IMG/VR virus record: IMGVR_UViG_2744054962_000001
Source: a virus
Taxonomy: Duplodnaviria; Heunggongvirae; Uroviricota; Caudoviricetes
Strand: one strand, 5' to 3'
Length of the DNA stretch: 64,000 bases
Shown: one piece after another, positions 4,255-53,480 of the stretch
Numbering within the stretch: position 1 is the stretch's first letter
Layout of the letters: each line of letters opens with the position of its first letter
The notes under the pieces: model-generated
Told to the model about the DNA's origin: nothing
Seen by the model: the letters and a program-made list of their open reading frames with translations, nothing else
Databases searched by the model: none
Translations under genes and position numbers: made by a program

Positions 4255-4316
4255 CCTGTTTCTGTATATAAATAATAAGTAACTTATTAAATATATATAC
4301 GGAAGCAGGTCTTTTA
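4255..4316. terminator. Long AT-rich hairpin, probable terminator; member of a two-copy repeat family (second copy 53417-53480)
   Basis: Arms CCTGTTTCTGTATATA and TATATACGGAAGCAGG pair with G-U wobbles, followed by TCTTTT. Confidence 0.5.
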
Positions 4317-4417
4317 AAAGACACCCACCAGAACAACTCCCTTCCGTTTCCACTTCCAAAAACTGCCACCAGTCGCTATCATCCGCTCATTGTGATAAGT
4401 AAGTAACTACCTACCAG

Positions 4418-5167
4418 GTGAGCCACATGAGCCAAATCTTTTTCGATACCATCGACAACAACCAGTACGACTTCATGACAGAGTGGAATACCGCTGTTAT
4501 GGACAAGTGGGTTGCTGAAAACATTGGTTTGTCGCGCTGTAAAGACGAGGCTGAACTCTTCGAGACGAAGTGGTTTGATTATCGCGACATGCATCCTCTC
4601 ATGGCCACCTGTCTTTTTACGGAGGCATACAAACGTCAGTACTCAAATATCATGCTGACGCACGGTCGCGAACACTTTGAAACAGCTCCGTTCACCACCG
4701 GGTTAAAACGTCTGCCTTATCAGGAGTTGTCGACTGCCAACAAAACGTCGCTATGGAAAGCACGCCAGTTTGCGGATCGCTATTGCTGCTCATACGACTA
4801 CTTTATCTCCACCGTTCTTTCCGCAGCTGCACGACGGCTGTGGGACAAGCTGCCGCGCCCACAGCATTTGTGGCAGCCAGAACTGATTGAGATATTTGAA
4901 GAGAAATTAGCCAGACGCGCAACAACCCGTCTGGATGACTCTCTGGTTAGCTTTAAGCATATGGGAGACATGCAGTTCAACCCGATTCAGGAAAGCTATT
5001 TTGAGTGGATTCTGGAGCGTTTGCGCACCATCCCTCGCAGTAAGCGCATACGCGCAATTTTCTCCGCTATCTGGCTAATGGAAATCGTTCCAGAGCGCCT
5101 TATTTCCGCCCACTTTCCAGAAGAACTGGAAGAAGCACGGCGGTTTATTGATCCCCTATCTAATTAA
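4418..5167 (+). CDS. Hypothetical protein
   Basis: 249-aa ORF upstream of helicase gene; no recognisable motif. Confidence 0.45.
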   Translation: MSHMSQIFFDTIDNNQYDFMTEWNTAVMDKWVAENIGLSRCKDEAELFETKWFDYRDMHPLMATCLFTEAYKRQYSNIMLTHGREHFETAPFTTGLKRLPYQELSTANKTSLWKARQFADRYCCSYDYFISTVLSAAARRLWDKLPRPQHLWQPELIEIFEEKLARRATTRLDDSLVSFKHMGDMQFNPIQESYFEWILERLRTIPRSKRIRAIFSAIWLMEIVPERLISAHFPEELEEARRFIDPLSN

Positions 5168-5177
5168 CTAATACTAG

Positions 5178-5191
5178 AAAACAATTTGTTT
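5178..5191 (+). promoter_or_regulatory. Conserved palindrome AAACAAnTTGTTT upstream of extended SD (family member)
   Basis: AAACAATTTGTTT 20 bp upstream of ATG 5211; same motif recurs at 17422, 32912, 45666, 55884, 56613. Confidence 0.4.
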
Positions 5192-5210
5192 AAAAAACAA
5201 AGGAAAGCAC

Positions 5211-6551
5211 ATGACCGAACTTTGCCATACAGGACGCGGGCTGTCCGAAGAGTTTGATGAAGATTTCCAGAACAGACTGACGGCATATTTTTGTCGTGAT
5301 CACGAGTTTCTTACTCGTGCGGGAGATCTGGTTGTGCCTAGCCAATTTGCCAATGCGGCCAATGCCATATTGGTTAATATGGTTTCGGGCTATTACCGTA
5401 TGTACAAGAGCGCGCCCTCTTCATCTGCAATTCTGGATATGCTTAAGCGTGCGAAACGCGATAAGACTATCCGTGAGGAACTATTCGCCGATGTTGTTGC
5501 TGCGTTTAAGCGCATCCTTGCAGAAAAATTGTCCGATACCTCGTACATGGTTGACCAGGTATCAACCTTCGCAAAAAGCGTAGCGTTTGATGATGCTCTG
5601 ATTAAGGCTGCTGAACTGAAAGAGAAAGGCGACTTTCAGGGGGCGATGGCAATCATGGCCAAGGTTCAGCAGATTGGATCGAACGAAGCGACCGGAATCT
5701 ATGACTACTACACCTCCGCAAGTGAGCGATTGAAAGCGCGTGAATATGAGGCTTCAGAGGAGTATGTACCAAACAGTATTACAACTGGACTCCCTCTTCT
5801 CGATAGGTTGCTGTACCAAAAAGGCTGGGCAAAGCGCGAAATGGTGCTCTTCATGGGGTTCGCTAAATCCGGTAAATCGACCGCAATGGGTGAGTTTTCC
5901 ATAAACGCAACGCTTGCTGGCTACAATGTTCTGTATCTCTCGCTGGAGGTTCACACCACCATTTTATCCGACCGTTTTGATGCAAGATTGTCGGAGACGG
6001 AAATGTCCAAGCTGGTGGAACGGCGCGATGAGGTTCATCGTAAGTTGGCAGAGTTGGGAGCCACGAAGGGGATTGGTAGTTTGTGGGTTGTTGAGCGTCC
6101 GTCAGGAAGTATGTCACCGGCAGACCTGGATCGTATGCTTAACAGCATGAAAGCCAATGGCATGGTGCCTGACATGGTTGTTGTCGACTACGCAGATTTG
6201 ATGCGTGCCAGTTATGACCTTCGTGATGATCGCGCCAACATTCGTAGTATCTACACCGATTTACGTGCTCTTTATGACAAGCATAACGTTGCTGGTATCA
6301 CGGCGTCGCAAACAAACCGTGAAGGTGGCGCGTCAGAAGTTGCCACAATGATGCACGCTGCCGACAACATCGAAAAAGTACGTATTGCTGACCTGGTAAT
6401 AACGATCAACAAAACCGAAGAAGAAGAAGCGAAAGGAGAGGCTCGTCTCTACTTTGCTGGTTCGCGTAACCAGCAGGGAGGGATCAGCATTCGCGTTAAA
6501 CAAAACCTCGAACAAATGCGCTTCATTGAGCGAATCTTAGACGTTACCTAA
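5211..6551 (+). CDS. Replicative DNA helicase (DnaB-like / RecA-fold)
   Basis: Walker A GFAKSGKST, Walker B-like VVVDYADLM, 446 aa, immediately upstream of primase. Confidence 0.7.
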   Translation: MTELCHTGRGLSEEFDEDFQNRLTAYFCRDHEFLTRAGDLVVPSQFANAANAILVNMVSGYYRMYKSAPSSSAILDMLKRAKRDKTIREELFADVVAAFKRILAEKLSDTSYMVDQVSTFAKSVAFDDALIKAAELKEKGDFQGAMAIMAKVQQIGSNEATGIYDYYTSASERLKAREYEASEEYVPNSITTGLPLLDRLLYQKGWAKREMVLFMGFAKSGKSTAMGEFSINATLAGYNVLYLSLEVHTTILSDRFDARLSETEMSKLVERRDEVHRKLAELGATKGIGSLWVVERPSGSMSPADLDRMLNSMKANGMVPDMVVVDYADLMRASYDLRDDRANIRSIYTDLRALYDKHNVAGITASQTNREGGASEVATMMHAADNIEKVRIADLVITINKTEEEEAKGEARLYFAGSRNQQGGISIRVKQNLEQMRFIERILDVT

Positions 6552-6557
6552 AAAATA

Positions 6558-6580
6558 AGCGTGGAGAACACCTCCACGCT
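6558..6580. terminator. Hairpin after helicase gene
   Basis: AGCGTGGAG aacac CTCCACGCT inverted repeat. Confidence 0.4.
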
Positions 6581-6632
6581 TGATTCATTGGTGAAACAAC
6601 TTTTCTTTTGCCAAACCACAAAAGAAAAACAC

Positions 6633-7814
6633 ATGAGCCTTTATGTTATATCAACATTTAGGTTGGTCACAATATTGCCTGTTAAAAGTGGAATTATCGT
6701 GAGCGAGCTGAAAGAGCTAATTACCGAATTAGATTTTGAACAATGGTTGGATACTGAAGGTATCGTTTATCGACGTGGAGGCGTGAGTACTCGCGGTCGT
6801 GAAGTGAATATCAAGGAGTGTCCGGTATGCGGCAGCTCCAACTGGAAGGTATATTTCAATCTGACCAGTGGCGTCGGTAAATGCTTCGCTGGTGATCATC
6901 CCGAAGAGATTCAGTTCAATAAGCTGGTCTTCCTCAAGCACTACAGCGGTAAATCACGACGACAGTTCGAGGAATATGTGCAGAACGCTCTTCTTTCCCA
7001 GGGGTGGGCACCAAAGAAAGAAGAGATAGTGCTTGCAAGCACAGTCGAGTTAGAGGGACCAGTTGCACTCCCTCGTCATTACGATCTTCCTATAGATGGC
7101 CATCTTCCAGACTATCTGGTTGAACGAAATATATCGCCTGAAATGGCAAAGTATTTTGACCTACGATACTGCGTCGAAGGCAAGCACGCTTATGTAGATC
7201 CGTATACAGATCAGGTTAAAGGACAGATTTTCGATATGCGAATACTGATACCGGTTTACGATCTGGATGGGGTAATGAAGACATTTCAAGGACGAGACAT
7301 TACCGGTACAGCAGAACGCCGCTACCTCTTCCCTATGCAGCTGCCGGCGTCGGGTAAGTTTCTCTACAACGGCCACAACGCAGTCGGGAAACAAACAGTC
7401 GTTGTGTGTGAAGGGGCATTTGACGTAATGGGCGTGAAGCGAGCCATCTTCGACGAAAAGACGCTGAGGGATTATGTAGAGCCAATTGGCACGTTCGGGA
7501 TGCACTTGTCCGGAAATATGAATGAGGACGCTGAAGATCAGTTGGGCGCGTTCCTGACGCTCAAGGCGCGTGGATTACGCAACGTCATCATGATGTGGGA
7601 TAGCGAGAAGCAAGCGATCCGCAACACCATGTCGGCGGCCAAACGCCTCACCAGCATCGGACTAAATGTCAAAGTGGCCTGTCTGGGCGAAGAAGGTCTC
7701 GACCCCGGCGACGCGACGCCAGAGCAGATCCTCAAAGCCTATTATCGTGCCAAGCCTTACTCCAAACAGCTGGAGTTAAAATGCAAAGTGCTCGGTATCA
7801 AGTCACTCGTGTAG
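6633..7814 (+). CDS. DNA primase (DnaG-like zinc-binding domain plus TOPRIM)
   Basis: CPVCGSS...CFAGDH zinc-ribbon-like motif and TOPRIM-like VVVCEGAFDVMG; ATG at 6633 preceded by AAAAGAAAAACAC motif; ORF track start 6561 overlaps the upstream hairpin. Confidence 0.65.
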   Translation: MSLYVISTFRLVTILPVKSGIIVSELKELITELDFEQWLDTEGIVYRRGGVSTRGREVNIKECPVCGSSNWKVYFNLTSGVGKCFAGDHPEEIQFNKLVFLKHYSGKSRRQFEEYVQNALLSQGWAPKKEEIVLASTVELEGPVALPRHYDLPIDGHLPDYLVERNISPEMAKYFDLRYCVEGKHAYVDPYTDQVKGQIFDMRILIPVYDLDGVMKTFQGRDITGTAERRYLFPMQLPASGKFLYNGHNAVGKQTVVVCEGAFDVMGVKRAIFDEKTLRDYVEPIGTFGMHLSGNMNEDAEDQLGAFLTLKARGLRNVIMMWDSEKQAIRNTMSAAKRLTSIGLNVKVACLGEEGLDPGDATPEQILKAYYRAKPYSKQLELKCKVLGIKSLV

Positions 7815-7815
7815 T

Positions 7816-8913: not shown

Positions 8914-9051
8914 ATAGAAGTGACCTGACAGCTACAACTGGACAAGATTAAGAGCATTTTTTATAAACGAAAATAAACGCCTACATTGATAAGTAGATAC
9001 ATACTTATATTTCTGTAAGAATATGCTCGACGAAGGAATTGAGGAACCTTT

Positions 9052-19562: not shown

Positions 19563-19657
19563 ACAAAACAGCCTTAACGATAAGTAACCACTTACGATAG
19601 ATAATGATATATTTATATAAGAAGTTGAACGCTCATTAGAAAACAAAGGAAAAACGC

Positions 19658-24610: not shown

Positions 24611-24883
24611 AAAGAATTATGGCGCTTGTTGAGGAAGTCACTCCTCTTACGCACTTTGTTTTGCCATGCCGGCAGTTAGCTTCTGCCTTTGACTATTCAT
24701 GCGGCAACCCCGCATTTCGCCACAATGGGCAATTCACTTTTATGGAATAAACTGGCCGTTGTGTCGATTTAATTAGCATGGCCTTACCATGCTAATTTAT
24801 TCAACTTGTACAATCCTACAAATCTATCCACTCAGGCTTACACCGTCTTCGTTATTGTAGAAATGAGGATCATCAGCGTTGAA

Positions 24884-25099
24884 TCAGCTTAGAGCAACGA
24901 CATTTGCTGCTGCTGGGCCTTTAGCACCATTCTCGATAGAGAATTCGACCTGCTGGCCTTCTTCCAAAGTGCGGAAATTATTACTCTGAATTGCCGAAAA
25001 ATGTACAAAAACATCTTTACTGCCATCAGCAGGAGAAATAAAGCCAAAGCCTTTATCAGAGTTAAACCATTTTACTAAACCAGTCATTTTATTAGACAT
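24884..25099 (-). CDS. Cold-shock protein (CspA family)
   Basis: [21 protein letters not shown]...[10 protein letters not shown] cold-shock domain with RNP motifs; ORF-track N-terminal extension is probably 5-prime UTR. Confidence 0.8.
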
Positions 25100-25403
25100 A
25101 GATATTACCTTCTTAATTTTGTGAGCCACATAGTGCGGCGAGAATTTGATCTGTATAGATTGGGACTTACTTAGGCACTTAAGGAGGAGGCTCACGAAGA
25201 AGGGAAATCAGAAGATAACACTGAACTGAGACTGCTTTACTAAAACTGCTTACATAAGGTCTGTCTTGCAAACCAACGATGCTATTAACGCATACCCCTT
25301 CTTTTCATGCAACCTTTATTTTTCAAAGATAACTAATTTTTGTCACCATTGGTTTAGTAAACGTTAACGAACCAGACGATGCCAGACACCTTTACAGAGA
25401 ACA

Positions 25404-25427: not shown

Positions 25428-25428
25428 A

Positions 25429-27080: not shown

Positions 27081-28109
27081 ATGTCTAAGACATTACTTGA
27101 TTTGCTTAACAAAACTCGTGAAGACATTGCCGCCAAACGTGGTAACAACGTTGATCTGACTCGCTTAAAAGACGGCGTCAACTATATCCGCATCTTCCCG
27201 AATAAAGACGACCCAAACGGTAAGTTCTTCCAGACTTTCGGTATGCACTACGTTAAGTATCAGAACGAGGAAGGTAAAGAAGCAACCAACGCTTATATTT
27301 GTGAGCAACATACTCACGGTCGCGCTTGTCAGCTATGCGAAATGGTGATGGAAGGTCGCGCTCGTCACAAGGGTAACAAAGCAATGGAAGAACGCATCGG
27401 TCAAATGCGTGCCACTCCTCGCTACCTGGTCAACGGCATTCTTTCTGCTCGTGAGGATTTCGCAGATGCTGAGAAATGCCAGTTAATCGAGCTGCCGTCT
27501 ACTGTATTCGATGATATCTGCAAAGCAATCACCGAAGACATCGCTGATGATATCGGCAATCCACTGAGCAAAGAGGAAGGCTACGCATTCCTGATTAAAC
27601 GTACTGGCTCTGGTCGCGATACCAAATATGACGTCTCGCCTAAGCGTAAAGTCTACAAAGGCGATATCGAAGATAAATTCTGGAACACCCAGCATGATCT
27701 GATCGCATACGCAAATCAGGCTGATGAAACTCGTCTTCTGTCGACAGTTCGCACTATGGGTCGTCTGATTGGCATCGCTGCACCAACTGCCGCAGCATCT
27801 GCACCAGCAATTTCCTCAACCGCGAAAACATCGGCTGCGGCACTACCTGGATTTGGCTCTGTCACTGGTCATACAGAAGGAGCGACGGCTGTAGCAACCG
27901 CGCACACACCGGCTTCTGAACCAACCAGTCTGGTTGATGAAGAAATCCTCCGTGCCGTTGAAACTGAATTTAAACCAGAGGCAAGTTCCGCTGCCGTTGC
28001 CGTATCAGTCAAAGAGTCTGAAGCAGTCGCAGCGACATCTGTAGCAACCGCATCTGCGACGGAAGATGAAGGTCTGGATGACCTACTGAGAGAGCTGGAC
28101 TCTCTGTAA
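27081..28109 (+). CDS. Single-stranded DNA-binding protein (T4 gp32-like)
   Basis: Zinc-binding His/Cys cluster CEQHTHGRACQLC and acidic Ala/Ser-rich C-terminal tail. Confidence 0.6.
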   Translation: MSKTLLDLLNKTREDIAAKRGNNVDLTRLKDGVNYIRIFPNKDDPNGKFFQTFGMHYVKYQNEEGKEATNAYICEQHTHGRACQLCEMVMEGRARHKGNKAMEERIGQMRATPRYLVNGILSAREDFADAEKCQLIELPSTVFDDICKAITEDIADDIGNPLSKEEGYAFLIKRTGSGRDTKYDVSPKRKVYKGDIEDKFWNTQHDLIAYANQADETRLLSTVRTMGRLIGIAAPTAAASAPAISSTAKTSAAALPGFGSVTGHTEGATAVATAHTPASEPTSLVDEEILRAVETEFKPEASSAAVAVSVKESEAVAATSVATASATEDEGLDDLLRELDSL

Positions 28110-28125: not shown

Positions 28126-28155
28126 GTAAGGCGTCTACGGACGCCTTACTTTTTG
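28126..28155 (+). terminator. Intrinsic terminator (GGCGTC family)
   Basis: GTAAGGCGTC tacg GACGCCTTAC followed by TTTTT. Confidence 0.55.
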
Positions 28156-28169: not shown

Positions 28170-29114
28170 GTGAATTATCTCTTCGTAGATGGCAATAGCC
28201 TGGGTTATTACCACCAACAATCTGACAAATTGCACAACGGCGAAATGGAAGTACAGGCTGCTTTCGGCTTTGTTAAGAACGTCCGTCGTTATGCCTCCAT
28301 CCTCCATGCCCGACCTATGATTCTTTGGGATGGATTTAGTGACAAGCGTCGCGACTTTTACCCGGACTACAAAGCAAATCGCGACGACGATCCTGATATG
28401 AAAAAGATGAAGGAAGGCTTTGCTATCCAGAAGCCATACATCCTCAAAATGATGACCGCGCTTGGAGTTACCCAACTCATTGCAAAAGATGCAGAAGCGG
28501 ATGATCTGGCCGGGCTGCTGGTATCCCGCATGGCACCGCAGCCAACCGTTGAACACATCTATCTGTTAACAGGCGATAGCGACTGGCTTCAGTTAGTTCG
28601 TGAAAACGTAAGCTGGGTAAGCCTGCGTGAAGACGCCAAAAACAAGCAGGTTAATTTTGAGCAATTTGCGGAGCTGACAGGATTCGCCACGCCTCGCGCA
28701 TTTTTGGAAGCAAAAGCATTACAAGGCGATAACTCGGACAACATTAGCGGTGTTGGTGGCATTGGTGCTGGCGGTGCGAAAGAGCTGCTGCATGAATGGG
28801 GAAGTGTCGCAACGATGGTACGCGGCATCAACGACGGCTCAATCGTGGTTAATAAAGGGCGTCATAAGACCGCCTTCAACAAACTAGCGAAGAATGCCTT
28901 CAACGAGAAAACAGGCTGTCGAATGCTCGAAGCGTTCAAGAGAAACATCACGCTAATGAACCTGATTGAGACGAAGTTTCCGCCTACCGAAATCGAAACA
29001 ATCAAAGGCAATCGTGACGTGAAAGCATTCGAGCAACTGTGCTACGAGCTGAATTTCCGTTCGTTCCTTGAAGACCTTGAAGTGTTTGTTCTTCCATTCG
29101 AAAGGTATTGCTAA
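28170..29114 (+). CDS. 5-prime to 3-prime exonuclease / flap endonuclease
   Basis: N-terminal NYLFVDGNSLGYY, EADDLAG acidic cluster, H3TH motif GDNSDNISGVGGIGAGGAKELL; GTG start at 28170 downstream of the terminator. Confidence 0.7.
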   Translation: MNYLFVDGNSLGYYHQQSDKLHNGEMEVQAAFGFVKNVRRYASILHARPMILWDGFSDKRRDFYPDYKANRDDDPDMKKMKEGFAIQKPYILKMMTALGVTQLIAKDAEADDLAGLLVSRMAPQPTVEHIYLLTGDSDWLQLVRENVSWVSLREDAKNKQVNFEQFAELTGFATPRAFLEAKALQGDNSDNISGVGGIGAGGAKELLHEWGSVATMVRGINDGSIVVNKGRHKTAFNKLAKNAFNEKTGCRMLEAFKRNITLMNLIETKFPPTEIETIKGNRDVKAFEQLCYELNFRSFLEDLEVFVLPFERYC

Positions 29115-29382: not shown

Positions 29383-31722
29383 ATGGCAAAAGGAAAATCC
29401 GCACTGGCACTTGCTCTGAAAAAGAAAATCGGTAGCAACGACGAAATTCAGAAAGTAACTCATTGGATTGATACAGGCTTTCCACCGTTAAACAAAGCTA
29501 TTTCTGGTCGTTACGATGGCGGCTTCCCATGTGGTCGTATCGTCGAAGTATTCGGTCCTCCAAGCGCGGGGAAATGTGTTACCGCAGACACCATGCTGCT
29601 GACGGAGCGTGGAATGGTAACAGTGAAAGAGTTGTTTGAGATTGAAGGGTACAAAGCGACATGCACTACTCGCGATGTAGAGCATAACGTTGGACTCATC
29701 AATGAAAATGGCGTGATAGAGAAGACCTCACACCTGACATGGAACAACCGTCGCAAATTCAAGCGTATTAAGCTGGCATCAGGCGGTTATATCGAGGCTA
29801 CGTTCCGTCACCCAATCCGTGTGGTTGACGACTTAGGTAATGTCGTCTGGCGACATGCTGAAAAAATCAGTGTAGGCGACACGATTCCTTCAATGGTTGG
29901 CACACATCAATTCGGCGATCAGCACCTGGATGCCAATATCGCAAAACTGATGGGCTATTTAATTGCTGACGGATACGTGGCCTCTGAAAATTCAGTGAAT
30001 TTTTCTAACACAGATCCTTTCATCAAGGATGAGTACTACCGCCTCATTTCGCTGGTATCAGACAAGATGCCAGTTACGAGAAAACATAACGGCTCGGAAG
30101 ACCATGTGCTGTTTAGCAAAGAGGTGCGTTCGCTGCTTTTTAAAGAATATGGTCTGGAGTATGAGAAAGCTGCTGGCAAGCAGGTTCCGTTGAGTGTGCG
30201 TCGCGCCAATAGCGAGGCTCAAATTGCATTCCTTCGCGGCTACTTTGAGCTGGAATGCCACGTCAATGATGGTCGCTGCATTGAGGTTGTGAGCGCGAGT
30301 GGGCTGCTGCTACAGCAAATTCGCCTCATGCTCCTGAATCTGGGGATTACGTCAACTATCTCTGAAAAACACGTCGCGGGTTATGAAAATACATATTACC
30401 GGCTGTCATTCAGTGGCTCTAATTACGACCTTTTTCTGTCAACGATTGGTTTCGAATCTCCGGCACGTTTATCAGTGGCAACCAAACGGGACATTGGTTT
30501 TGACCGCACTTACTCAGGCTATGTTCCGCACATCAGCGGCTTAGTGAAATCACTCTACGAGTCGCTCACCAAGACCACCCGTGAAGACTACGCTCTGGTA
30601 GACCACGTTATTGGCCGCGGCGATCGTGTCGGAATAGACAAACTGCGAGAAATCTATGTCTCCTTCATTGGCAGAAAGAATCGTTTTAACGAGCATCTGT
30701 TTGCACAACTGGCAGCGGTAATTGGCTCTAACTTGTTCTACGACGAAGTCGTGGCTATTGAGGAAGGTGAAGCACCAACGTTCGACGTAGCGATGCCGGA
30801 AACACACTCTTTCTGGTCTAACGGGATTATCAGCCACAACACATTCCTTGCAACAGCAGCGATGATCTCCGCTCAAAAACAAGATGGTCTGGCGGTATTC
30901 CTCGATCATGAAAACAGTTTTGACGTTGGCCTGGCTGTAGCCAATGGCCTGAACGCAGATGAGGATGACGGTCAGTGGGTATACAAGCAGCCTGATACCT
31001 TCGAAGACTCTGTAGAGTTGATCGGCACAATACTTAAATTGGTACGTGATGAAGAGCTTATCCCCGAATCAGCACCTATCTGTATCGTGGCTGACTCTCT
31101 TGCGTCTATGGTTCCGAACTCCAAAGCCGAGAAGTTCGAAAAGATGGCTGAAGGCACTGCCAAAGACAAAGATCAGCTAAACATGAACGACAATACGGCA
31201 CTGGCTCGTGCGACGAGTGCGAACTTCCCTACTCTGGCTTTGTGGGCACGCAAATACAACGCCTGCATCATCTTCTTGAATCAGGTTCGCACAAAAATCG
31301 GTGTAATGTTTGGCGACCCTACTACGTCGCCAGGTGGAGATTCACCGAAGTTCTACGCATCTGTACGTATCCGTCTTGGTGCATCGGTGATGAAGGATGG
31401 TAAAGAGAAGATCGGTCAGGACGTAGGCGCAGAATGCATCAAAAACAAAGTTGCACCACCGTATGGCAAATGCACCTGGAAATTCTACTTCGATCCTACT
31501 CGTGGCCTCGACGTTATCGAGTCGCTCGTCGAGTACATGCTGGAAGAAGGATACCTGCCAAAGAACGCCAGCGGTCGAGTAGAAATTGGTGACAAGAAAT
31601 ACACCAAATCACAGATCGTCGAGATGTATCGGGAGAAGCCACTGGCTGAAATCATTGCGGCTTTGCAGGCAATCGACGACCGAAGAGCAAAAGACAACCC
31701 CACCGAGTCAGTAGAAGAGTAA
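29383..31722 (+). CDS. RecA/UvsX-like recombinase interrupted by an intein
   Basis: P-loop GPPSAGK split from TFLATAAMISAQ by 422 aa; extein about 357 aa. Confidence 0.75.
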   Translation: MAKGKSALALALKKKIGSNDEIQKVTHWIDTGFPPLNKAISGRYDGGFPCGRIVEVFGPPSAGKCVTADTMLLTERGMVTVKELFEIEGYKATCTTRDVEHNVGLINENGVIEKTSHLTWNNRRKFKRIKLASGGYIEATFRHPIRVVDDLGNVVWRHAEKISVGDTIPSMVGTHQFGDQHLDANIAKLMGYLIADGYVASENSVNFSNTDPFIKDEYYRLISLVSDKMPVTRKHNGSEDHVLFSKEVRSLLFKEYGLEYEKAAGKQVPLSVRRANSEAQIAFLRGYFELECHVNDGRCIEVVSASGLLLQQIRLMLLNLGITSTISEKHVAGYENTYYRLSFSGSNYDLFLSTIGFESPARLSVATKRDIGFDRTYSGYVPHISGLVKSLYESLTKTTREDYALVDHVIGRGDRVGIDKLREIYVSFIGRKNRFNEHLFAQLAAVIGSNLFYDEVVAIEEGEAPTFDVAMPETHSFWSNGIISHNTFLATAAMISAQKQDGLAVFLDHENSFDVGLAVANGLNADEDDGQWVYKQPDTFEDSVELIGTILKLVRDEELIPESAPICIVADSLASMVPNSKAEKFEKMAEGTAKDKDQLNMNDNTALARATSANFPTLALWARKYNACIIFLNQVRTKIGVMFGDPTTSPGGDSPKFYASVRIRLGASVMKDGKEKIGQDVGAECIKNKVAPPYGKCTWKFYFDPTRGLDVIESLVEYMLEEGYLPKNASGRVEIGDKKYTKSQIVEMYREKPLAEIIAALQAIDDRRAKDNPTESVEE
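29575..30840 (+). mobile_element. Intein with LAGLIDADG homing endonuclease domain inserted in the RecA P-loop
   Basis: Begins with Cys after GPPSAGK, ends SHN followed by Thr; LAGLIDADG-like blocks LMGYLIADGYV and FLRGYFELECHV. Confidence 0.7.
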
Positions 31723-31726: not shown

Positions 31727-31752
31727 AAGGCGTCCACAGGACGCCTTTTTTA
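31727..31752 (+). terminator. Intrinsic terminator (GGCGTCC family)
   Basis: GGCGTCC aca GGACGCC followed by TTTTTT. Confidence 0.6.
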
Positions 31753-31814
31753 TCTCTTGAAAATATATAAGTGCTTACTTATTATTTTCACATAACAACC
31801 ACATAGGAAAACAC

Positions 31815-32018: not shown

Positions 32019-32849
32019 ATGAAGAAAGGTTTACTTGCAGTTGCTCTGGCGGCTATTTGCACAATGGGTCTTACTGGCTGCGATCGCGTGGAGCCTGGAT
32101 ACGTTGGCATCAAAGTAAACAAATTAGGTGAAGACAAAGGGATTGGTGAAGTGGTTGGCGTTGGTCGCCAATGGACAGGTCTTAACACCGAACTTTACGT
32201 ATTCCCGACCTTCAAACAAATGAAGACCTACGACGAGCCGTTCACATTCCAGATGAGTGACGGTACTGCTATTGGTCACAAAATTGGCGTTGCGTATCTG
32301 GTTAATCGTGACAAGGTAACGACGGTGTTCCAGACCTATCGCAAAGGCGTAGACGATATCACCGAATCAGATCTGCGTCAGAAAATTGCCGACTCTCTAA
32401 ACCGTTTGGCCAGCCGTATGACCACTGACTCATTTATCGACGGTGGTAAGGCACAATTGCTGGACAACGCACTGAAAGATATTCAGAAAGAGATGTCTCC
32501 GGTTGGTATTGAGGTACTGAGCCTGTCATGGGTTGGAAAGCCTGATTACCCAAAAACTGTCATTGAATCTATTAACGCCAAAGTAACGGCTAACCAGCGT
32601 ACTCTGCAACGTCAGCAGGAAGTTGAACAACGTAAAGCTGAGGCGAATATGCTACGTGAACAGGCTAATGGTGAAGCTGATGCTATCCGTGCTCGTGCGC
32701 AAGCAGAAGCAGACGCCATTCGTCTGCGCGGTGAAGCTCTGCGTCAAAACCCGAACGTTATGGAACTGGAAGCCATCAATAAATGGAATGGCCAGTTACC
32801 GCAGTACATGACTCAAGGGGCTAACACTCCTTTCATTACAGTGAAATAA
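32019..32849 (+). CDS. SPFH/band-7 domain lipoprotein
   Basis: Signal peptide with lipobox LTGC; coiled-coil Ala/Glu/Arg-rich C-terminal region typical of SPFH proteins. Confidence 0.6.
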   Translation: MKKGLLAVALAAICTMGLTGCDRVEPGYVGIKVNKLGEDKGIGEVVGVGRQWTGLNTELYVFPTFKQMKTYDEPFTFQMSDGTAIGHKIGVAYLVNRDKVTTVFQTYRKGVDDITESDLRQKIADSLNRLASRMTTDSFIDGGKAQLLDNALKDIQKEMSPVGIEVLSLSWVGKPDYPKTVIESINAKVTANQRTLQRQQEVEQRKAEANMLREQANGEADAIRARAQAEADAIRLRGEALRQNPNVMELEAINKWNGQLPQYMTQGANTPFITVK

Positions 32850-32865: not shown

Positions 32866-32890
32866 AGGCGTCCAGTTGGACGCCTTTTTT
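32866..32890 (+). terminator. Intrinsic terminator (GGCGTCC family)
   Basis: AGGCGTCC agtt GGACGCCT followed by TTTTTT. Confidence 0.6.
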
Positions 32891-36047: not shown

Positions 36048-36172
36048 GATTACAGTGGATAGTAGCACTCATCACAGCGGTTATCCTACCGTCTATAGTG
36101 GTTTTTCTCCTCTCTATAGTGGTTGCTTTGCTCCCTATAGTGGATTATTCGCTCTCTATAGTGGATATCGAT
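36048..36172. repeat. Iteron array (origin-proximal, upstream of rep)
   Basis: Copies of CTCTATAGTGG(A/T)T at about 21-22 bp spacing (36091, 36112, 36133, 36155). Confidence 0.6.
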
Positions 36173-36439: not shown

Positions 36440-36556
36440 GCTCTACTCTCTACAGTGGATATATACAGCTCTCCAGAGTGGTTGTTTTACTCTTCATAGC
36501 GGTTATTCAGCTCTCTACAGAGGTTTCTTTGCTCTCCATAGTGGATGGCAACACCC
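36440..36556. repeat. Second iteron array
   Basis: Five copies of CTCTACAGTGGATA-like motif at about 21 bp spacing after an AT-rich stretch (36340-36430). Confidence 0.55.
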
Positions 36557-37907: not shown

Positions 37908-37938
37908 AAAGCACCCCATACGAGGTGCTCCTGAAGAA

Positions 37939-49959: not shown

Positions 49960-50603
49960 TGGATTACCGGATTGGGATCACTGGTGCTCAGGGCAGTGGG
50001 AAAACAACCCTGGCTAAATATATCGACAAACATTACGGAATCCCTTACGTGGATGCTGGTGTCGGAAGTTTGATGAGCCGCCTCGGTGTTCGAGTAGGTG
50101 AGTCTATGCCTCTATATGAGCGGCTTCAGATTCAAATGGAAATAGCAAAGCATATAGAGCTACTTACGCGTGGTGTTGAAGGCTTTGTTATCGATCGCAC
50201 ACCTGCTGATGTTATGGCCTACACGTTGGATTTGGTCGGCCATACAAATGAAGATCGGTGTATTGAGTTAGCCCTCGATATCGAAAAGTTTTGCCACAAA
50301 ACTGCTATTTCAAACTTTAACGCCATTGCTGGCTTACGCCCGGGAGTCGCTCTCTCAGAGCGAGATTACTTGCGATCACAACGAGCATCATTAGACCGTC
50401 TGTATGTCGCTCGTATTGATGCGTTGATGTGCGGGGAACTGACAAAAATTCACCTGCATCCGCAAAGGGGAGATCTGCAAACCTTCGTCGTTTCCAACCG
50501 ATATCGCACGGTTGAAGCAAGAGCCAGATCAGTGATGAGAATGCTAGATAACGCTGTAGAAAAGATAGAAAACCGGTTCTGTGGCCGAGTGACCGTTCAT
50601 TAG
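49959..50603 (+). CDS. P-loop nucleotide kinase (dNMP kinase-like)
   Basis: Walker A GAQGSGKTT at N-terminus, 214 aa, within nucleotide-metabolism operon. Confidence 0.45.
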   Translation: MDYRIGITGAQGSGKTTLAKYIDKHYGIPYVDAGVGSLMSRLGVRVGESMPLYERLQIQMEIAKHIELLTRGVEGFVIDRTPADVMAYTLDLVGHTNEDRCIELALDIEKFCHKTAISNFNAIAGLRPGVALSERDYLRSQRASLDRLYVARIDALMCGELTKIHLHPQRGDLQTFVVSNRYRTVEARARSVMRMLDNAVEKIENRFCGRVTVH

Positions 50604-50664
50604 AAATTGTTCGCCTCTTCGACATTGCGACAATAAAACTCTCAAAATGGGTTAAGGATAAAAA

Positions 50665-51084
50665 ATGTTTAGTGAAATGTTGCTTGAAGATGAACTGGAT
50701 CGGAAAACAACAGAGGCTTTGATTCGTGTAGCGGACGAACATTCCCGGTCGCTTATGACCGATCGAGAGGCTCGTCTGGCTATTCGTGCCATATTCGAAA
50801 CTGCGCAGGGGCTTGTTGGCGCACAAGTAGGTGAAGCCATTAACATCGCCATGTCTCAGTTCAGTGAAGACAGTAAAAAGCCTCTGTTTCCTATGCATTT
50901 GATGCTGGCTGGTGGCACGGTGCTTTATATCTCTGTTTGTCTGGATAGCAACCAAATCAATATTCTCAACACTGCGTCAGGTAAGTGGAAAGATCCGATT
51001 GTCTGTGAAACCAGTGAAGAAACTTTGAAAAAAGCGGCTCAATTTGTACGTAGCGCACTACTTAAGGGCGCTAAGAAGTTGTAA
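50665..51084 (+). CDS. Hypothetical protein
   Basis: 139-aa ORF. Confidence 0.4.
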   Translation: MFSEMLLEDELDRKTTEALIRVADEHSRSLMTDREARLAIRAIFETAQGLVGAQVGEAINIAMSQFSEDSKKPLFPMHLMLAGGTVLYISVCLDSNQINILNTASGKWKDPIVCETSEETLKKAAQFVRSALLKGAKKL

Positions 51085-51093
51085 GGAGTTCTG

Positions 51094-51648
51094 ATGACAA
51101 CGATTGTTGCAGGCATCGATATCGAGTCTACGGGACTGGATTTCCTTGCTGGTCATAAAATTATTGAAATCGCAATTACCCGCTATGAACTGGAGACACA
51201 GACAATGGTTGATAGTTTTGTAATGCGGTTCAACCCGCGTCGCAGTATCGATCCGAAAGCGCAAGCGGTACACGGCATCAGTCTTGAAGATTTAGCCGCC
51301 GAGCCGTTACTAGCCGATCACGCTTCATCTGTCGCTTCGTATCTCTCTTCTTCCGATATTTGGATAGCCCACAACGGCGAAGCGTTCGATATTCCGTTTA
51401 TTAGGCATGAGCTGAAAAGTTACGGTTTTTCGCTTCCAGACATCCCATTGATTGACACTCTATTTTCCCTGTGGGCCACAGAAGACGGTAAACGTCCCCG
51501 CCTTGAAGAGTTGGCCTTCTCTCTTGGCTTTATGTACGATCATACTAAAGCACATAGTGCCTTATATGACACAAACTTAATGATGCAATGCTTCTTTAAG
51601 GCACGTAATAAGTACGGATTTTTTAAATTACCCTCTGAAATTGTGTAA
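51094..51648 (+). CDS. DnaQ-like 3-prime to 5-prime exonuclease (DEDDh)
   Basis: Exo I GIDIESTG, Exo II HNGEAFD, Exo III HSALYDT. Confidence 0.7.
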   Translation: MTTIVAGIDIESTGLDFLAGHKIIEIAITRYELETQTMVDSFVMRFNPRRSIDPKAQAVHGISLEDLAAEPLLADHASSVASYLSSSDIWIAHNGEAFDIPFIRHELKSYGFSLPDIPLIDTLFSLWATEDGKRPRLEELAFSLGFMYDHTKAHSALYDTNLMMQCFFKARNKYGFFKLPSEIV

Positions 51649-51652
51649 AACA

Positions 51653-51691
51653 AAAGCCTGCTTTAAAGAGAGTTTAAAGCAGGCTTTCTTT
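51653..51691 (+). terminator. Long hairpin terminator
   Basis: AAAGCCTGCTTTAAA gagag TTTAAAGCAGGCTTT followed by CTTTT. Confidence 0.6.
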
Positions 51692-51808
51692 TAAAGAACA
51701 GCCGCCTTTCAATCATTTCCTGCCTGTATTTAATACTTTTCCGCCTGATAGGTTTAGTCAAAATGTAGCTATCGAAACGCAAATGTAACCAAGCAGAAGG
51801 AGACTTAC

Positions 51809-52618
51809 ATGAGTTCGGTTGAAAATGTAATGGCAAATGATGATCTGGACGAGCTGACAGCCATGTTGCAATCACTTGATGAGCCAGTAAAAAAAGCCGC
51901 ACAGGTTGAAAATACTGATGATATTGACGATCTGCTGCTCGGCCTCGATGCTGGCGTAGCCATGAGTTCTGATGATGTTGCCGAAGAACTGTTCAATGAA
52001 GAAAAAGCAGGTGATTTCAGCTCTGCTTTAAATGAGTTGGAGTTAGCGCATGAGCCTATAAACGTAATTAACGCTGAAAGTGTTGAATCTGCCGAAAACG
52101 AGCCAGAACAATTGGGATTGATTGAGGTTGAAGAGTGTGTTGATGTTAATGATGAATTAAAAGTTCAACAGTCAAATGATAGCAACACAAATAAAAAAGC
52201 GCGTACTGCAAGAGGTCCTCGTTTTACTTTAAGTGATAAAGATGATTCGTTTTTCAATAAAGCAGGCTTAGAAACAGATATTTTCTTAGACGCTTACGAA
52301 AACGCGCCTGTCAAAGCAAAGGATAAGATATTAAACCTTCTTAATTGGTTTAGCGGAGGTCCAGATATTAGTGTTTACACGGTAATTTCCATGAGACACC
52401 TTCTCACAGAAAAGAAGGCTACAAGTAATAGTATTAAGATTGCTTTAATGAGCAATCCAGAAAAACCGTATCCGCTTAACACTGCGTCAACTCAGGCTGG
52501 GCAAATGATGGCTGTATTTCCAGCGACAGGAATTGCCGTTAGAGACGGTGGAAATCTAACATTGAACGAAGAATCACCGATCGTTAAGAAGTTTGTAGCG
52601 GAGTACACTATTGGATGA
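51809..52618 (+). CDS. Hypothetical protein with strongly acidic N-terminal half
   Basis: First 110 aa dominated by Asp/Glu (DDLDELT, DDIDDLLLGLD, DDVAEELFNEE); 269 aa. Confidence 0.45.
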   Translation: MSSVENVMANDDLDELTAMLQSLDEPVKKAAQVENTDDIDDLLLGLDAGVAMSSDDVAEELFNEEKAGDFSSALNELELAHEPINVINAESVESAENEPEQLGLIEVEECVDVNDELKVQQSNDSNTNKKARTARGPRFTLSDKDDSFFNKAGLETDIFLDAYENAPVKAKDKILNLLNWFSGGPDISVYTVISMRHLLTEKKATSNSIKIALMSNPEKPYPLNTASTQAGQMMAVFPATGIAVRDGGNLTLNEESPIVKKFVAEYTIG

Positions 52619-52693
52619 CGTCCCCCTACTGAAAATAAAGCCCATAGAGAGCTTTATAGTGCTGGGTAAGCCAATCACATATCCAGCACCACA

Positions 52694-52740
52694 AAAACGC
52701 GCCAGAGAGCTTCTCGTTTGCATTTCTGGCGCGTTTTATT
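52694..52740 (+). terminator. Hairpin terminator
   Basis: AAAACGCGCCAGA ... TCTGGCGCGTTTT. Confidence 0.5.
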
Positions 52741-52801
52741 TGATTGTCAGACATAAAATCAAATGCAAAAATAGGTAATCACTTACCTATCGAGAAAGAA
52801 G

Positions 52802-53395
52802 ATGATTGCAGCCGAAAAAATCAAACAGCGAAAGCGCGACAACTCTCTTCGTGACCTCTGGAGAACACCTGACTGGCTGTTTTCTGCCATTCAACGTTAT
52901 CTTGGAGTGACATTTGATGTTGACGTTGCCTGCAACAAGGACAATGCGAAGCTGCCTAATTTCATAGGCGTTGAGCGTGATGCTTTGAAATCTGAATGGG
53001 GAAAGCCAGGTACAATTGCCTTCCTCAATCCACCCTACTCCAAAATCTCCCCCTGGATTGATGCGGCTATACGTGAGCAGGCTCGCGGAGTTACAACAGT
53101 GATGCTAATTCCTCAATCCCTCGATACAAAGTGGTATGAGCGTGCAACAGAGTGTGCGAATGAGACGATTATTCTGTCTGGTGGCCGCGTAGCGTTTGTC
53201 GAGCCTGACGTCAATTTGGGTCAGGTAGAAGTAAACATCAACCCCGGTGGCAGTATGCTCGTTGTTTTTCGAGGATTCTGTCAGGACGCTGGGCACTCTA
53301 TAAGCAAGATCCCTTTGGACGTCATGAAAAGTCTGGGAGGGTATGATCCTGCGAATGTGATCAGGAAAAAAAGACCATCAAAGAAGGCTGCTTAG
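52802..53395 (+). CDS. Orphan DNA N6-adenine methyltransferase (phage Dam-like)
   Basis: Catalytic NPPY motif (FLNPPYSK); 197 aa with no adjacent restriction gene. Confidence 0.65.
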   Translation: MIAAEKIKQRKRDNSLRDLWRTPDWLFSAIQRYLGVTFDVDVACNKDNAKLPNFIGVERDALKSEWGKPGTIAFLNPPYSKISPWIDAAIREQARGVTTVMLIPQSLDTKWYERATECANETIILSGGRVAFVEPDVNLGQVEVNINPGGSMLVVFRGFCQDAGHSISKIPLDVMKSLGGYDPANVIRKKRPSKKAA

Positions 53396-53416
53396 TTTGT
53401 TCTGGCGTCTGTAATT

Positions 53417-53480
53417 AGCCTGCTTCTGTATATATAAATAACTACATATTAATTATTAATATACGGAAGCAGGCTGTTTT
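53417..53480. terminator. Long AT-rich hairpin, second copy of the 4255-4316 family
   Basis: AGCCTGCTTCTGTATAT ... ATATACGGAAGCAGGCT with one G-U wobble, followed by GTTTT. Confidence 0.5.

Follow-up and report, generated by a model that had tools for sequence, protein, structure and literature searches.

Are the hairpins that recur in a phage-plasmid genome portable terminators travelling with cargo genes, or fixed components of the backbone? We examined this in the window, the whole 64,000-nucleotide stretch of DNA that was analysed (GC 0.454), which is 100% identical to the E. coli plasmid CP090273.1 and whose source replicon is an SSU5/pHCM2/pMT1-type phage-plasmid with its own repertoire of gp32-, UvsX/RecA-, UvsY- and UvsW-like proteins. 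The first-pass annotation of this DNA had described three GC-rich hairpins and two long AT-rich ones; all five are present at the coordinates given there (Table 1), with folds much more stable than those of dinucleotide shuffles. They represent two separate entities: ordinary terminators (T1-T3) and a long AT-rich boundary element.

Table 1. Hairpins and neighbouring features of the window
Feature	Position	Strand	Sequence and remarks
Short hairpin	3026..3055	+	AATAATGTGGGC-tgtcta-GCCCACATTATT, then TTAATT; directly 3' of the parA operon's 119-aa gene
Two-gene low-GC cargo	3070..4246	+	PHROGs 22270 and 17322; fills the slot in the window replicon
Copy A, inner palindrome	4255..4309	+	CCTGTTTCTGTATATA, AT-rich apex with AATAAGTAACTTATT, TATATACGGAAGCAGG
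Copy A, U-tail	4310..4316	+	TCTTTTA; tail score 2.57, 97th percentile
C-rich, G-poor untranslated tract 3' of copy A	4317..4385	+	C 0.42, G 0.10
Inferred promoter	4354..4382	+	TTCCAA-17 nt-TATCAT; 8/12 consensus matches, below scan threshold
TAAGTA-type operator-like palindrome	4396..4413	+	before conserved gene 4424-5167
T1, intrinsic terminator	28126..28154	+	GTAAGGCGTC-tacg-GACGCCTTAC, then TTTTT; fold, U-tail, orthologues
T2, intrinsic terminator	31727..31752	+	AAGGCGTCC-aca-GGACGCCTT, then TTTTT; fold, U-tail, orthologues
Sigma-70-like promoter	31757..31785	+	TTGAAA-17-TATTAT; 10/12 consensus matches
T3, intrinsic terminator	32866..32890	+	AGGCGTCC-agtt-GGACGCCT, then TTTTT; fold, U-tail, orthologues
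Copy B, left outer arm	53400..53409	+	TTCTGGCGTC; 5 nt past the methyltransferase stop codon (53393-53395)
Copy B, inner palindrome	53418..53474	+	GCCTGCTTCTGTATATA, AT-rich apex, TATACGGAAGCAGGC
Copy B, U-tail	53475..53480	+	TGTTTT; tail score 2.87, 98th percentile
C-rich, G-poor tract 3' of copy B	53481..53545	+	C 0.38, G 0.10

The three short GC-rich hairpins

The short hairpins had been credited with a common GGCGTCC core and a T tract. T tails follow all three and the exact core GGCGTCC-loop-GGACGCC is found in T2 and T3 (two occurrences in the window against 0.00 expected), but T1 has only the shorter core GGCGTC-TACG-GACGCC, set within the longer stem GTAAGGCGTC/GACGCCTTAC. T1 lies between a gp32-like SSB gene (27081-28109, gp32 Pfam) and an exonuclease gene (GTG at 28170) and folds at -19.8 kcal/mol (z = -4.3 against dinucleotide shuffles), T2 comes after the intein-containing RecA gene (29383-31722; z = -5.4) and T3 after an SPFH/Band-7 gene (32019-32849; z = -4.6). 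Their tail scores of 3.69, 3.84 and 4.05 all reach at least the 99.6th percentile of the window, which is where T1 stands. The window, Cyrano and SSU5 each have exactly three hairpins of the GGCGTC type, whose sites are orthologous, whose stems are fixed and whose loops vary, and the type is kept in Klebsiella relatives: T1 has the same sequence in Cyrano, in SSU5 and in two Klebsiella relatives, the stem of T2 is unchanged in Cyrano (loop AAAC) and SSU5 (loop ATT), and the loop of T3 is ACTT in SSU5.

These hairpins agree in every respect with the intrinsic terminators of enterobacteria and their phages, having a G+C-rich stem of 8-10 bp, a loop of 3-4 nt and 5-6 U residues; each lies directly past a stop codon, and only the coding strand carries it. 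Their assignment as canonical Rho-independent terminators is well supported, and they end three transcription units of the recombination/replication module. They form a small conserved family, which probably arose by duplication. Directly 3' of T2 is a sigma-70-like promoter with the palindrome ATAAGTGCTTACTTAT in its spacer.

Architecture and placement of the long element

The long AT-rich hairpins are two copies of a repeat of ~100 bp that is apparently new to description, comprising an inner palindrome of ~57 bp and an outer inverted repeat, GTCTGGGAG/CTCCCAGAC. There are three copies per genome, at sites A, B and C, the first two within the window and the third outside it; the larger dyad around each long hairpin and the third copy had been missed in the first-pass annotation. 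The inner hairpin, of 17-19 bp with a small internal loop and an apical stem of 7 bp, amounts to ~2.5 helical turns, and with the outer arms the whole fold of ~100 nt reaches -43 to -65 kcal/mol. Copy A of the window replicon is without the left outer arm. Copies A and B are 79% identical, in line with the earlier estimate of about 80 percent, and both fold well beyond dinucleotide shuffles (z = -7.1 and -7.2, respectively). It had also been proposed that G-U wobbles maintain the pairing. This holds in the window, where copy A folds at -25.5 kcal/mol on the + strand and -17.5 on the - strand, but not across the family, where folding energy has no strand bias and the Y/R states of the two arms are independent (Fisher p = 0.29); the G-U argument for pairing at the RNA level therefore fails to generalise.

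The U-tail of copy A lies within a small palindrome, GTCTTTTAAAAGAC (4309-4322). Averaged over copies, the 8 nt after the stem contain 5.6 T at site A and 4.6 at site B, with 3.5 and 3.15 A residues before the stem, and the tail score at site A is 2.9 on the + strand against 1.9 on the - strand. The C-G excess after copy A (0.35) is the highest 60-nt peak on the + strand of the window, and that after copy B (0.283) ranks fifth; within the latter tract are the right outer arm, ACTCCCAGAC, at 53490-53499 and, from 53534, a further CCCAGAC. Composition of this kind holds downstream of the element across lineages (C 0.38-0.39, G 0.11-0.14), and the tract following copy A is, judged by its base composition, a candidate Rho-loading (rut-like) region.

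We compared 215 copies of the element from viral and metagenome contigs. The hairpins are conserved, and 213 copies occupy the same three syntenic intergenic sites in the backbone, and all three sites lie in the gap after a codirectional gene; the element was found in 12 of 50,697 phage records, all from the SSU5-type phage-plasmid family. At site A, the parA operon with its own terminator is followed by cargo, hairpin A, the inferred promoter and operator-like palindrome, and replication genes. The stretch 4354..4413 is conserved across site A lineages, and the palindrome belongs to a family with 21 matches against 2.0 expected. The cargo lies in a variable slot bounded on the left by the short hairpin, near which the homology of relatives breaks (two-piece matches, ~20% of the query), and on the right by hairpin A, from the first base of which homology to every relative begins and runs on downstream. 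Since the upstream DNA falls into 18 unrelated classes in 48 copies, compared with 3-4 classes at sites B and C, and the downstream homology is constant, hairpin A stays while the cargo changes. Copy A is thus the fixed right border of a hypervariable cargo slot.

The genes upstream of both hairpins had been taken as foreign or orphan. This is correct for the cargo before A, which has a GC content of 0.31-0.35 (at or below the 1st percentile of the window) and is present in 7 of 363 related plasmids, but not for the Dam-like methyltransferase before B, which is neither, because its GC content (0.48) is backbone-like and it is kept in 12 of 12 related phage records. Because A is a fixed slot edge and B follows a conserved, non-foreign gene, the element belongs to the backbone, and in general it is not carried along with cargo, leaving the proposed portability mostly unsupported. 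A weaker form is favoured by two observations: the pair PHROGs 22270/17322 followed by the hairpin also occurs in diverged backbones, with proteins only 28-38% identical, and a rare fourth copy (L202) sits at the 5' edge of an inserted 3.1-kb toxin-antitoxin cassette containing RelBE.

Possible transcriptional insulation and competing explanations

The reading that we favour, though tentatively, is that the long elements are + strand transcriptional insulators or terminators that separate lytic modules from maintenance or cargo genes. RNA polymerase from the upstream unit would transcribe the dyad, and the RNA would form a long hairpin, with the G+C-rich base (CCUGCUUC/GAAGCAGG) adjoining the U-rich tail at sites A and B; escaping transcripts would enter the untranslated C-rich, G-poor tract of ~60 nt, where Rho could load. 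Readthrough from the parA operon and cargo before A, and from the parB-like operon before C, would thereby be kept out of the replication and packaging/morphogenesis modules, which would have their own regulated promoters. What we observe is position, structure, conservation, synteny, U-tails and C-rich tracts, and from these we infer termination, the involvement of Rho and this biological purpose; the terminator reading, well supported for the GC-rich three, is plausible but unproven for long copies A and B. In its favour, the U-tails of A and B are moderate and run into tracts that are strongly C-rich and poor in G. It is also favoured by placement after codirectional genes at module borders, by compensated double changes in both arms (Enterobacter site A, a Klebsiella phage site B and L140), by retention of the basal stem where the interior has drifted (L133 and L181) and by the diverged groups L173 and L175, sampled by synteny at site C. 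The arms of these two differ in sequence yet still pair, with G-U pairs only on the + strand (-46.5 and -42.8 against -34.3 and -28.9 on the - strand) and 8+6 T after the stem, so that diverged lineages carry textbook U-tracts. Against it, U-tails are poor (1.45-1.98) at site C in the window's clade and at the fourth copy, which lies ~90 nt past a good canonical terminator, and a simple terminator scan of the window called neither A nor B.

The way in which the arms are conserved also counts against an insulator and speaks for a serious, if rather unlikely, rival, in which a protein complex encoded by the phage-plasmid would recognise the dyad at the DNA level, the inner CTGCTTCYGTATATA and outer GTCTGGGAG motifs of the dyad being symmetric around a bendable AT-rich centre. 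The inner arms have 19 invariant columns and a covariation term of -0.28, indicating conservation at the sequence level; for the outer arms, pairing with their own partners has no advantage over pairing with those of other lineages (-14.55 versus -14.36); and of the 33 arm variants at one position, 32 lack a compensating change and are maintained in lineages. Together with the independent arm states, the missing strand bias and the lack of U-tails at site C and the fourth copy, this is as expected of a protein site. So is the right arm consensus GG(A/G)AGCA.GG, kept in Xenorhabdus, Morganella, Moellerella and Photobacterium even with a differing or decayed left arm. In the K. pneumoniae group L177 the left arm has decayed and the right is kept, and in L183 the unit is apparently inverted at site A, with inverted duplicate copies; both tell against an insulator. 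The dyad might serve ParB-like proteins as a dispersed centromere or operator, bind the small protein whose gene comes just before site C, have a role related to packaging, or act as a T4-style unwinding element or origin. Site C, where ParB-like genes are followed by hairpin C and terS, has two ParB_N-domain genes and a conserved 88-aa gene just upstream, and the SSU5 and Cyrano records were both opened within the apex of copy C. However, the binding partner is putative, and Pfam gave no DNA-binding domain for the 88-aa protein; known ParB/KorB sites are short contiguous palindromes, whereas 21-25 bp separate the arms here; and with three cos- or pac-like sites in each genome, packaged DNA would be cut into fragments. 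A symmetric site would also leave unexplained the polar U-tails and downstream-only C-rich tracts of A and B and the + biased, U-tract-bearing versions of L173 and L175.

Copies A and C of one lineage carry common lineage-specific apex changes, which fits a protein site and, with the strong arm conservation, suggests that the copies undergo gene conversion or that a further sequence-specific partner exists. Such signs of concerted evolution within a genome, including the left arm of L140 corrected at two positions at once, would also be expected if the elements were mainly recombination junctions, module-border repeats giving homologous or palindrome-driven exchange a foothold for swapping cargo cassettes, with any terminator activity secondary. 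The many upstream contexts at site A, the divergence of the window from all relatives, which begins with the inner palindrome's first base, the L202 copy at the edge of its replacement, a breakpoint ~47 nt or less from the hairpin in L192 and the inverted duplicates of L183 fit this reading. We nevertheless regard it as improbable, given that sites B and C are invariable on either side (3-5 flank classes), that the element is limited to three copies per genome and has practically no new insertion sites (2/215 exceptions), that exchange between 53 bp direct repeats would delete 30-47 kb of essential genes and that conservation at such depth implies selection for another function. An RNase III processing or stability element, in which stem cleavage would uncouple upstream from downstream RNA, seems to us distinctly improbable: the length and stability of the hairpin would suit it, and it would work at site C despite the absent U-tail, but RNase III has little sequence specificity, leaving the sequence-level conservation unexplained, the L177 and L183 versions cannot form the stem, and there is no strand bias.

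Comparison with known systems

Like intrinsic terminators, long copies A and B have a G+C-rich stem base beside a U-rich tail and follow a codirectional gene. They differ in their 55-57 nt hairpin with an AT-rich upper stem, in the extra outer inverted repeat, in U-tails that are moderate at A and B and poor at C and the fourth copy, and in a sequence conserved across paralogous sites and genera, as that of ordinary terminators is not. The promoter-early stem-loop (PeSL) cassettes of T4-type phages reportedly consist of a repeated intergenic stem-loop motif bordering variable, often orphan genes, and a role in modular shuffling has been proposed for them. Variable cargo is likewise found next to site A and the L202 copy, but no promoter was found within the long element (the scan gave only weak - strand matches), a genome has three fixed copies and not a large number, and at two of the three sites the neighbouring genes are conserved.

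The intercistronic RNase III sites of T7 and the sib retroregulator of lambda are similarly long, near-perfect RNA hairpins with an internal loop, placed between genes in a long codirectional transcript. They are conserved in structure and not in sequence, whereas the long element is conserved in sequence and has lost pairing in some lineages, and its cleavage is hypothetical. The KorB OB sites of RK2 and the scattered centromere sites of N15 are 13-16 bp contiguous palindromes bound by ParB-family proteins; the resemblance lies in a few conserved palindromes scattered between the genes of a plasmid or phage-plasmid with ParB-like proteins of its own, the difference in arms of at least 16 bp, their separation and the second, outer motif, any binding being hypothetical here. 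ERIC/IRU and REP/BIME sequences are also imperfect palindromes, of ~100 bp, in transcribed intergenic regions and can affect mRNA fate; they belong to chromosomes, where they number tens to hundreds and lack fixed synteny, whereas the long element was found only in SSU5-type phage-plasmids and is fixed in position.

Gene order and GC-rich hairpins of the phage-plasmid

Phage-plasmids of the SSU5/pHCM2/pMT1 type occur commonly in E. coli, Salmonella, Klebsiella and Yersinia pestis, with a variable cargo that includes resistance and toxin-antitoxin genes. The window, which derives from such an element, shares 98% identity with Escherichia phage Cyrano (the pLF82 phage-plasmid), has Salmonella phage SSU5 and Klebsiella phage-plasmids as further relatives, and over the stretch tested shows 100% identity to the E. 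coli plasmids CP090273.1 and AP023200.1 (each ~112 kb). Nearly all of its genes lie on the + strand and, as annotated in Cyrano and SSU5, their order runs from terS and morphogenesis through lysis, parA, replication, recombination, nucleotide metabolism and accessory functions to ParB-like genes and back to terS.

Several features of this backbone deserve mention in their own right. An intein with a LAGLIDADG homing-endonuclease domain interrupts the RecA-like gene, which encodes 779 aa in the window and Cyrano, as against 358 aa in SSU5 and the Klebsiella relatives. A full-length match to the cspA 5′-UTR thermoregulator (Rfam RF01766, 187 bits against a threshold of 78 bits) places both a cold-shock-type gene and its RNA thermosensor on the phage-plasmid. 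Three tRNA genes are followed directly by a long inverted repeat with 25-nt arms that are 88% complementary and 28 nt apart. Two iteron clusters (4 and 3 copies, 21-bp spacing, consensus CTATAGTGG...) adjoin the position of the RepA gene in Cyrano and presumably form the plasmid origin, and direct repeats of 76-95% identity, spaced 645-663 bp apart near the right end, suggest tandem paralogous genes.

Table. Positions of hairpins, dyad copies and accompanying features
Feature	Record	Position	Strand	Setting
T1	window	28126-28154	+	after gp32-like SSB gene (window, Cyrano, SSU5); 17 nt from stop codon
T2	window	31727-31752	+	after RecA gene (window, Cyrano, SSU5); 5 nt from stop codon
T3	window	32866-32890	+	after SPFH/Band-7 gene (window, Cyrano, SSU5); 17 nt from stop codon
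Hairpin A	window	4255-4309		site A, before conserved gene preceding helicase
Hairpin B	window	53418-53474		site B, after methyltransferase
Copy C	own replicon, L139	~3424-3540	-	site C, before terS
Copy C	Cyrano OV696614 (L003/L001)	108343..16		site C, before terS
Copy C	SSU5 NC_018843 (L006/L004)	103264..17		site C, before terS
Segment with fourth copy	OLHG01000923.1 (L202)	4140-7273		copy at 5′ edge
Copy with decayed left arm	L177	1058-1201		site C
Two opposed copies	Logan contig ERR14928287_2083 (L183)	1-300		site A
Cargo gene pair	window	3070-4246		between parA operon and hairpin A
RecA-like gene	window	29383-31722	+
cspA thermoregulator match	window	24859-25277	-
tRNA genes	window	13339-13583	+
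Long inverted repeat	window	13589-13666		directly 3′ of tRNA genes
Iteron clusters	window	36072-36164; 36473-36544
Direct repeats	window	62169-62267 and 62814-62912; 62678-62717 and 63341-63380
AAACAAnTTGTTT	window	1952, 3495, 5179, 17422, 32912, 45664, 55884, 56613	+
TAAGTAnnTACTTA/TAGGTAnnCACTTACCTA	window	4396-4413, 8990, 12572, 19581, 26978, 31768, 33390, 38537, 43222, 47938, 52772, 54987

All five hairpins marked by the first-pass annotation, the GC-rich T1-T3 and the long hairpins A and B, were recovered in place, and their folds were more stable than those of shuffled controls (z -4.3 to -7.2). T1-T3 have stems of 8-10 bp with at least six G-C pairs and loops of 3-4 nt, follow codirectional genes, and end in 5-6 T; their tail scores of 3.69-4.05 (at or above the 99.6th percentile of the window) agree with the T tract noted earlier, and the - strand of these hairpins has no T run. 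The GGCGTCC core ascribed to all three proved exact in part, since GGCGTCC-loop-GGACGCC occurs twice in the window (0.00 expected) and T1 has a shorter core, GGCGTC/GACGCC, within a longer stem. Exactly three GGCGTC...GACGCC hairpins occur in each of the window, Cyrano and SSU5, at the same positions and with identical stems and varying loops (ACA, AAAC or ATT in T2; AGTT or ACTT in T3). Two Klebsiella relatives have an identical T1, with T2 either kept or swapped for the related stem AAGGCGC...GCGCCTT. A sigma-70-like promoter (10/12 matches) lies directly 3′ of T2. Judged by sequence, fold and tail, T1-T3 are routine predicted intrinsic (Rho-independent) terminators, and their common stem is best explained by duplication within a 5-kb module.

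Two families of operator-like palindromes are also dispersed over the window. AAACAAnTTGTTT, with 8 matches against 0.42 expected, lies in most cases 14-35 nt upstream of start codons (parA, the helicase, the gene after T3 and others), also occurs in relatives between site C and terS, ~70 nt past the former, and probably serves some regulator either as an operator or as a translational operator at the RNA level. The TAAGTAnnTACTTA/TAGGTAnnCACTTACCTA family, with 21 matches against 2.0 expected, has members immediately 5′ of many genes, and the promoter that follows T2 carries one in its spacer; the pattern suggests that the element's master regulator has this palindrome as its dispersed operator. 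TAAGTnACTTA, a motif related to this second family, is present in the apices of hairpins A and C.

A dyad at three module borders

The long hairpins A and B, measured at 79% identity where ~80% had been estimated, are the inner palindromes (inner arms around an AT-rich apex) of a dyad of ~100-110 bp, which folds at -43 to -65 kcal/mol and includes an outer inverted repeat, (G)TCTGGGAG ... CTCCCAGAC, situated 10-14 nt outside the inner palindrome. In copy A of the window the cargo directly adjoins the inner palindrome, so that the left outer arm is missing, as is also the case in an Enterobacter plasmid with the same cargo (81% identity). Searching with the arm sequences revealed a third copy, C, in Cyrano and SSU5, between the last gene and terS and straddling the ends of the deposited linear records; it is also present in the window's own replicon. 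PhiR41_1, suspected of a fourth copy, has only A, B and C.

The expectation that the hairpins would recur in related elements was borne out. A scan of viral contigs gave at least 120 dyad matches, and all matches listed are at the three syntenic sites; a second scan with arm variants added 33 copies, all at B or C, and a metagenome scan 62, of which 60 are at A, B or C. Altogether 213 of the 215 copies gathered occupy these sites, a sample in which well-conserved copies are over-represented as all three scans demanded intact arms, the few synteny-based samples being the unbiased ones. In the phage collection the dyad occurs in 12 SSU5-type records only, and a terS-based sample yielded a canonical site C copy in a Yersinia pestis contig. 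The right arm, GG(A/G)AGCA.GG, is recognisable out to Xenorhabdus, Morganella, Moellerella and Photobacterium. The dyad marks the module borders of the SSU5-type family, with three copies per genome. Rfam 15 gave no match at gathering score to any of the five hairpins, a permissive search returned nothing more relevant than far-sub-threshold eukaryotic miRNA precursors, and the dyad has no description in Rfam or in the literature that could be searched.

The deposited Cyrano and SSU5 records open inside the apex of copy C, one base apart, which could reflect an assembly break at the palindrome or a real genome end; the Photobacterium contig L137 and the Logan contig L183 likewise end within the AT-rich core. 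The literature searched states nothing on the genome ends of SSU5 or Cyrano. A cos or pac site seems less likely, given that each genome would have three of them. In one lineage, copies A and C have lineage-specific apex changes in common, which points to gene conversion or a co-evolving partner. A K. pneumoniae-associated group has lost the left arm and kept the right at site C (L177), and carries two copies in opposite orientation ~200 bp apart at site A (L183), an arrangement that has no neat fit to any reading considered here.

Cargo and the edge at site A

Both long hairpins had been noted to follow foreign or orphan genes, with a hint that they travel with them. Before A this holds, in that the two-gene cargo (PHROGs 22270 and 17322) has a GC content of 0.31-0.35, at or below the first percentile, and is found in 7 of 363 related plasmids. 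Before B it does not, since the methyltransferase (Pfam Dam family) has the GC content of the backbone (0.48) and is conserved in 12 of 12 related phage records, and is therefore no orphan. Portability with cargo likewise fails as a general rule: for every relative, homology to the window sets in with the first base of hairpin A and extends downstream, and 48 copies of site A have upstream DNA of 18 unrelated classes (3-4 classes at B and C). Hairpin A is thus the fixed right-hand edge of a hypervariable slot, the left bracket of which is a short terminator-like hairpin ending the parA operon.

Two exceptions bear on this. In the metagenome contig L202, 0.5 kb of Cyrano sequence (between positions 97742 and 98259) is replaced by a 3.1-kb segment with a complete fourth copy at its 5′ edge; this cassette holds a RelBE-type toxin-antitoxin pair and three unknown ORFs and is bracketed by two canonical terminators. 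In L192 the hairpin directly follows a gene pair of the window cargo's two PHROG families (28% and 38% protein identity), and an unrelated HigBA module begins beyond ~47 nt past the hairpin. Movement of the cargo between unrelated elements was ruled out for L192, the cargo-plus-hairpin half being slot A of a diverged Cronobacter SSU5-like plasmid. Fixed sites together with these exceptions make the dyad a recurrent recombination junction rather than a free traveller; the earlier notion of portability is not a general rule, yet it catches a real association with cargo junctions. That recombination is what the dyads are for seems quite unlikely; variable DNA borders only site A and the rare L202 copy.

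Readings of the dyad and known systems

The most likely function, which we put forward tentatively, is that of a + strand transcriptional insulator, combining a hairpin and U-tail with a Rho-loading tract at A and B. The dyad occupies, at A, B and C alike, the intergenic space 3′ of a codirectional gene, with its outer arm starting a few bases past the stop codon at B and C. The base of the long hairpin is G+C-rich (CCUGCUUC/GAAGCAGG; -25.5 and -29.4 kcal/mol) and abuts the U tract; the 8 nt after the stem contain on average 5.6 T at A and 4.6 at B, with fewer A residues on the stem's other side. U-tail scores in the window are 2.57 for A (97th percentile) and 2.87 for B (98th), and across the family site A scores 2.9 read on the + strand versus 1.9 on the - strand. 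The 60-nt untranslated tracts after A and B (C 0.38-0.42, G 0.10) include the highest and the fifth C-minus-G peaks of the window, a pattern conserved across lineages and absent at ordinary terminators; their composition, which agrees with a Rho-dependent zone of 60-80 nt of untranslated, C-rich and G-poor sequence, is that expected of a Rho-loading site. The tract downstream of site C is weak (C 0.23, G 0.16). Maintenance genes and cargo precede A, ParB-like genes precede C, and the replication and packaging modules follow, a context that fits an insulator. At site C, identified by synteny in two diverged groups (~60% TerS identity), the arms differ in sequence and still pair; in these hairpins (L173/L175) G-U pairs make the + strand 12-14 kcal/mol stabler than the - strand, 8+6 T follow, and the predicted structure resembles a textbook terminator. 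The diverged site C versions L173 and L177 have tail scores of 3.65 and 3.33. Interior drift has spared the G+C-rich basal stem in L133 and L181, and compensated double changes occur in both arms of an Enterobacter site A (T-A to G-C), a Klebsiella phage site B (C-G to T-A) and L140.

Against an insulator stand the poor tail scores of site C in the own replicon (1.98/1.45), the L202 copy, which lacks a U-tail and lies ~90 nt downstream of a canonical terminator, the failure of a simple terminator scan to call A and B, and the arm loss and inversion in the K. pneumoniae group. Pairing maintained through G-U wobbles, as first proposed, holds in the window and in L173/L175; family-wide, folding energies have no strand bias, and the pairs at the variable Y/R position of the arms (T-G 26, C-G 20, T-A 7, C-A 2) match the counts expected if the arms were independent (27.6, 18.4, 5.4 and 3.6; Fisher p = 0.29), so that the wobble argument fails beyond the window. 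Within the E. coli/Salmonella/Klebsiella clade the inner arms are conserved as sequence (19 invariant columns, covariation term -0.28). A MAFFT/RNAalifold alignment of 80 extended elements yields no more than 9 pairs, which are nearly invariant; an outer arm's pairing with its own partner is no stronger than with partners from other lineages; and at one arm position 32 of 33 variants lack a compensating change and are maintained in lineages. These properties favour the main rival, a DNA-level protein-binding site, which we consider possible; so do the reach of the right arm to Photobacterium, the poor U-tails and the records cut in the apex of copy C, the cos/pac idea being left within this rival. 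Neither the covariation nor the cognate-flank test separates an RNA stem from a symmetric DNA site, and Pfam and PHROGs annotation of genes neighbouring the dyads provided no candidate binding protein. A doubtful extension would make the dyads primarily DNA-level domain boundaries rather than terminators, where an element-encoded complex would assemble and which would also serve as cargo-exchange junctions; the complex would comprise ParB-like proteins, a conserved 88-aa protein or the T4-like replication/recombination machinery, and the domains would be morphogenesis, replication/nucleotide metabolism and accessory/maintenance. Processing of the RNA hairpin by RNase III is very unlikely; the predicted fold (17-19 bp, an internal loop and a 7-bp stem) does offer the ~20 bp or more of near-continuous dsRNA required, and the extended stem reaches ~100 nt. 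Recombination junction and RNase III substrate are lesser alternatives to the insulator and the DNA-level site.

Two further candidates were set aside. The apical TAAGTnACTTA, ~10 bp upstream of TATATA, recalls the Lpa-dependent late promoters of P1, which have a 9-bp inverted repeat. The final T is missing from this -10. Further downstream, L202 and site A each have a distinct promoter-like site, that of A being a conserved but weak sequence with a TAAGTA-type operator-like palindrome; the resemblance remains a lead. CTGTATAT...ATATACAG resembles two LexA half-sites, but these are separated by ~30 bp, and in ~40% of left arms CTG has C in place of its T.

Present at exactly three module borders, the dyad is a concrete candidate for insulating maintenance and cargo expression from lytic genes. 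One of its sites is the fixed edge of the main cargo slot, and it offers a practical landmark for annotating SSU5-type elements and locating their cargo. Were it a protein-binding boundary or an origin, it would represent an unrecognised layer of genome organisation in this phage-plasmid family.

Among known systems, ordinary Rho-independent terminators have far shorter and less AT-rich hairpins than A and B. PeSL-type mobile regulatory cassettes contain an internal promoter and flank variable genes in many copies, whereas the dyad has three copies per genome and inside it only a 9/12 promoter match, on the - strand in the AT-rich apex and no more frequent than in shuffles. ERIC/REP-type repeats and MITEs are dispersed in many copies, without fixed synteny and also in host chromosomes, unlike the dyad with its three sites and SSU5-type phage matches. 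A protelomerase target (telRL) is a single ~50-bp palindrome in a linear plasmid prophage with its own protelomerase gene; a hairpin telomere was rejected for the dyad, given its three copies per genome, circular related plasmid records and no protelomerase annotated in Cyrano or SSU5. ParB/KorB-type sites are contiguous palindromes of 13-16 bp, whereas the dyad sets arms of at least 16 bp 21-25 bp apart and adds an outer motif.
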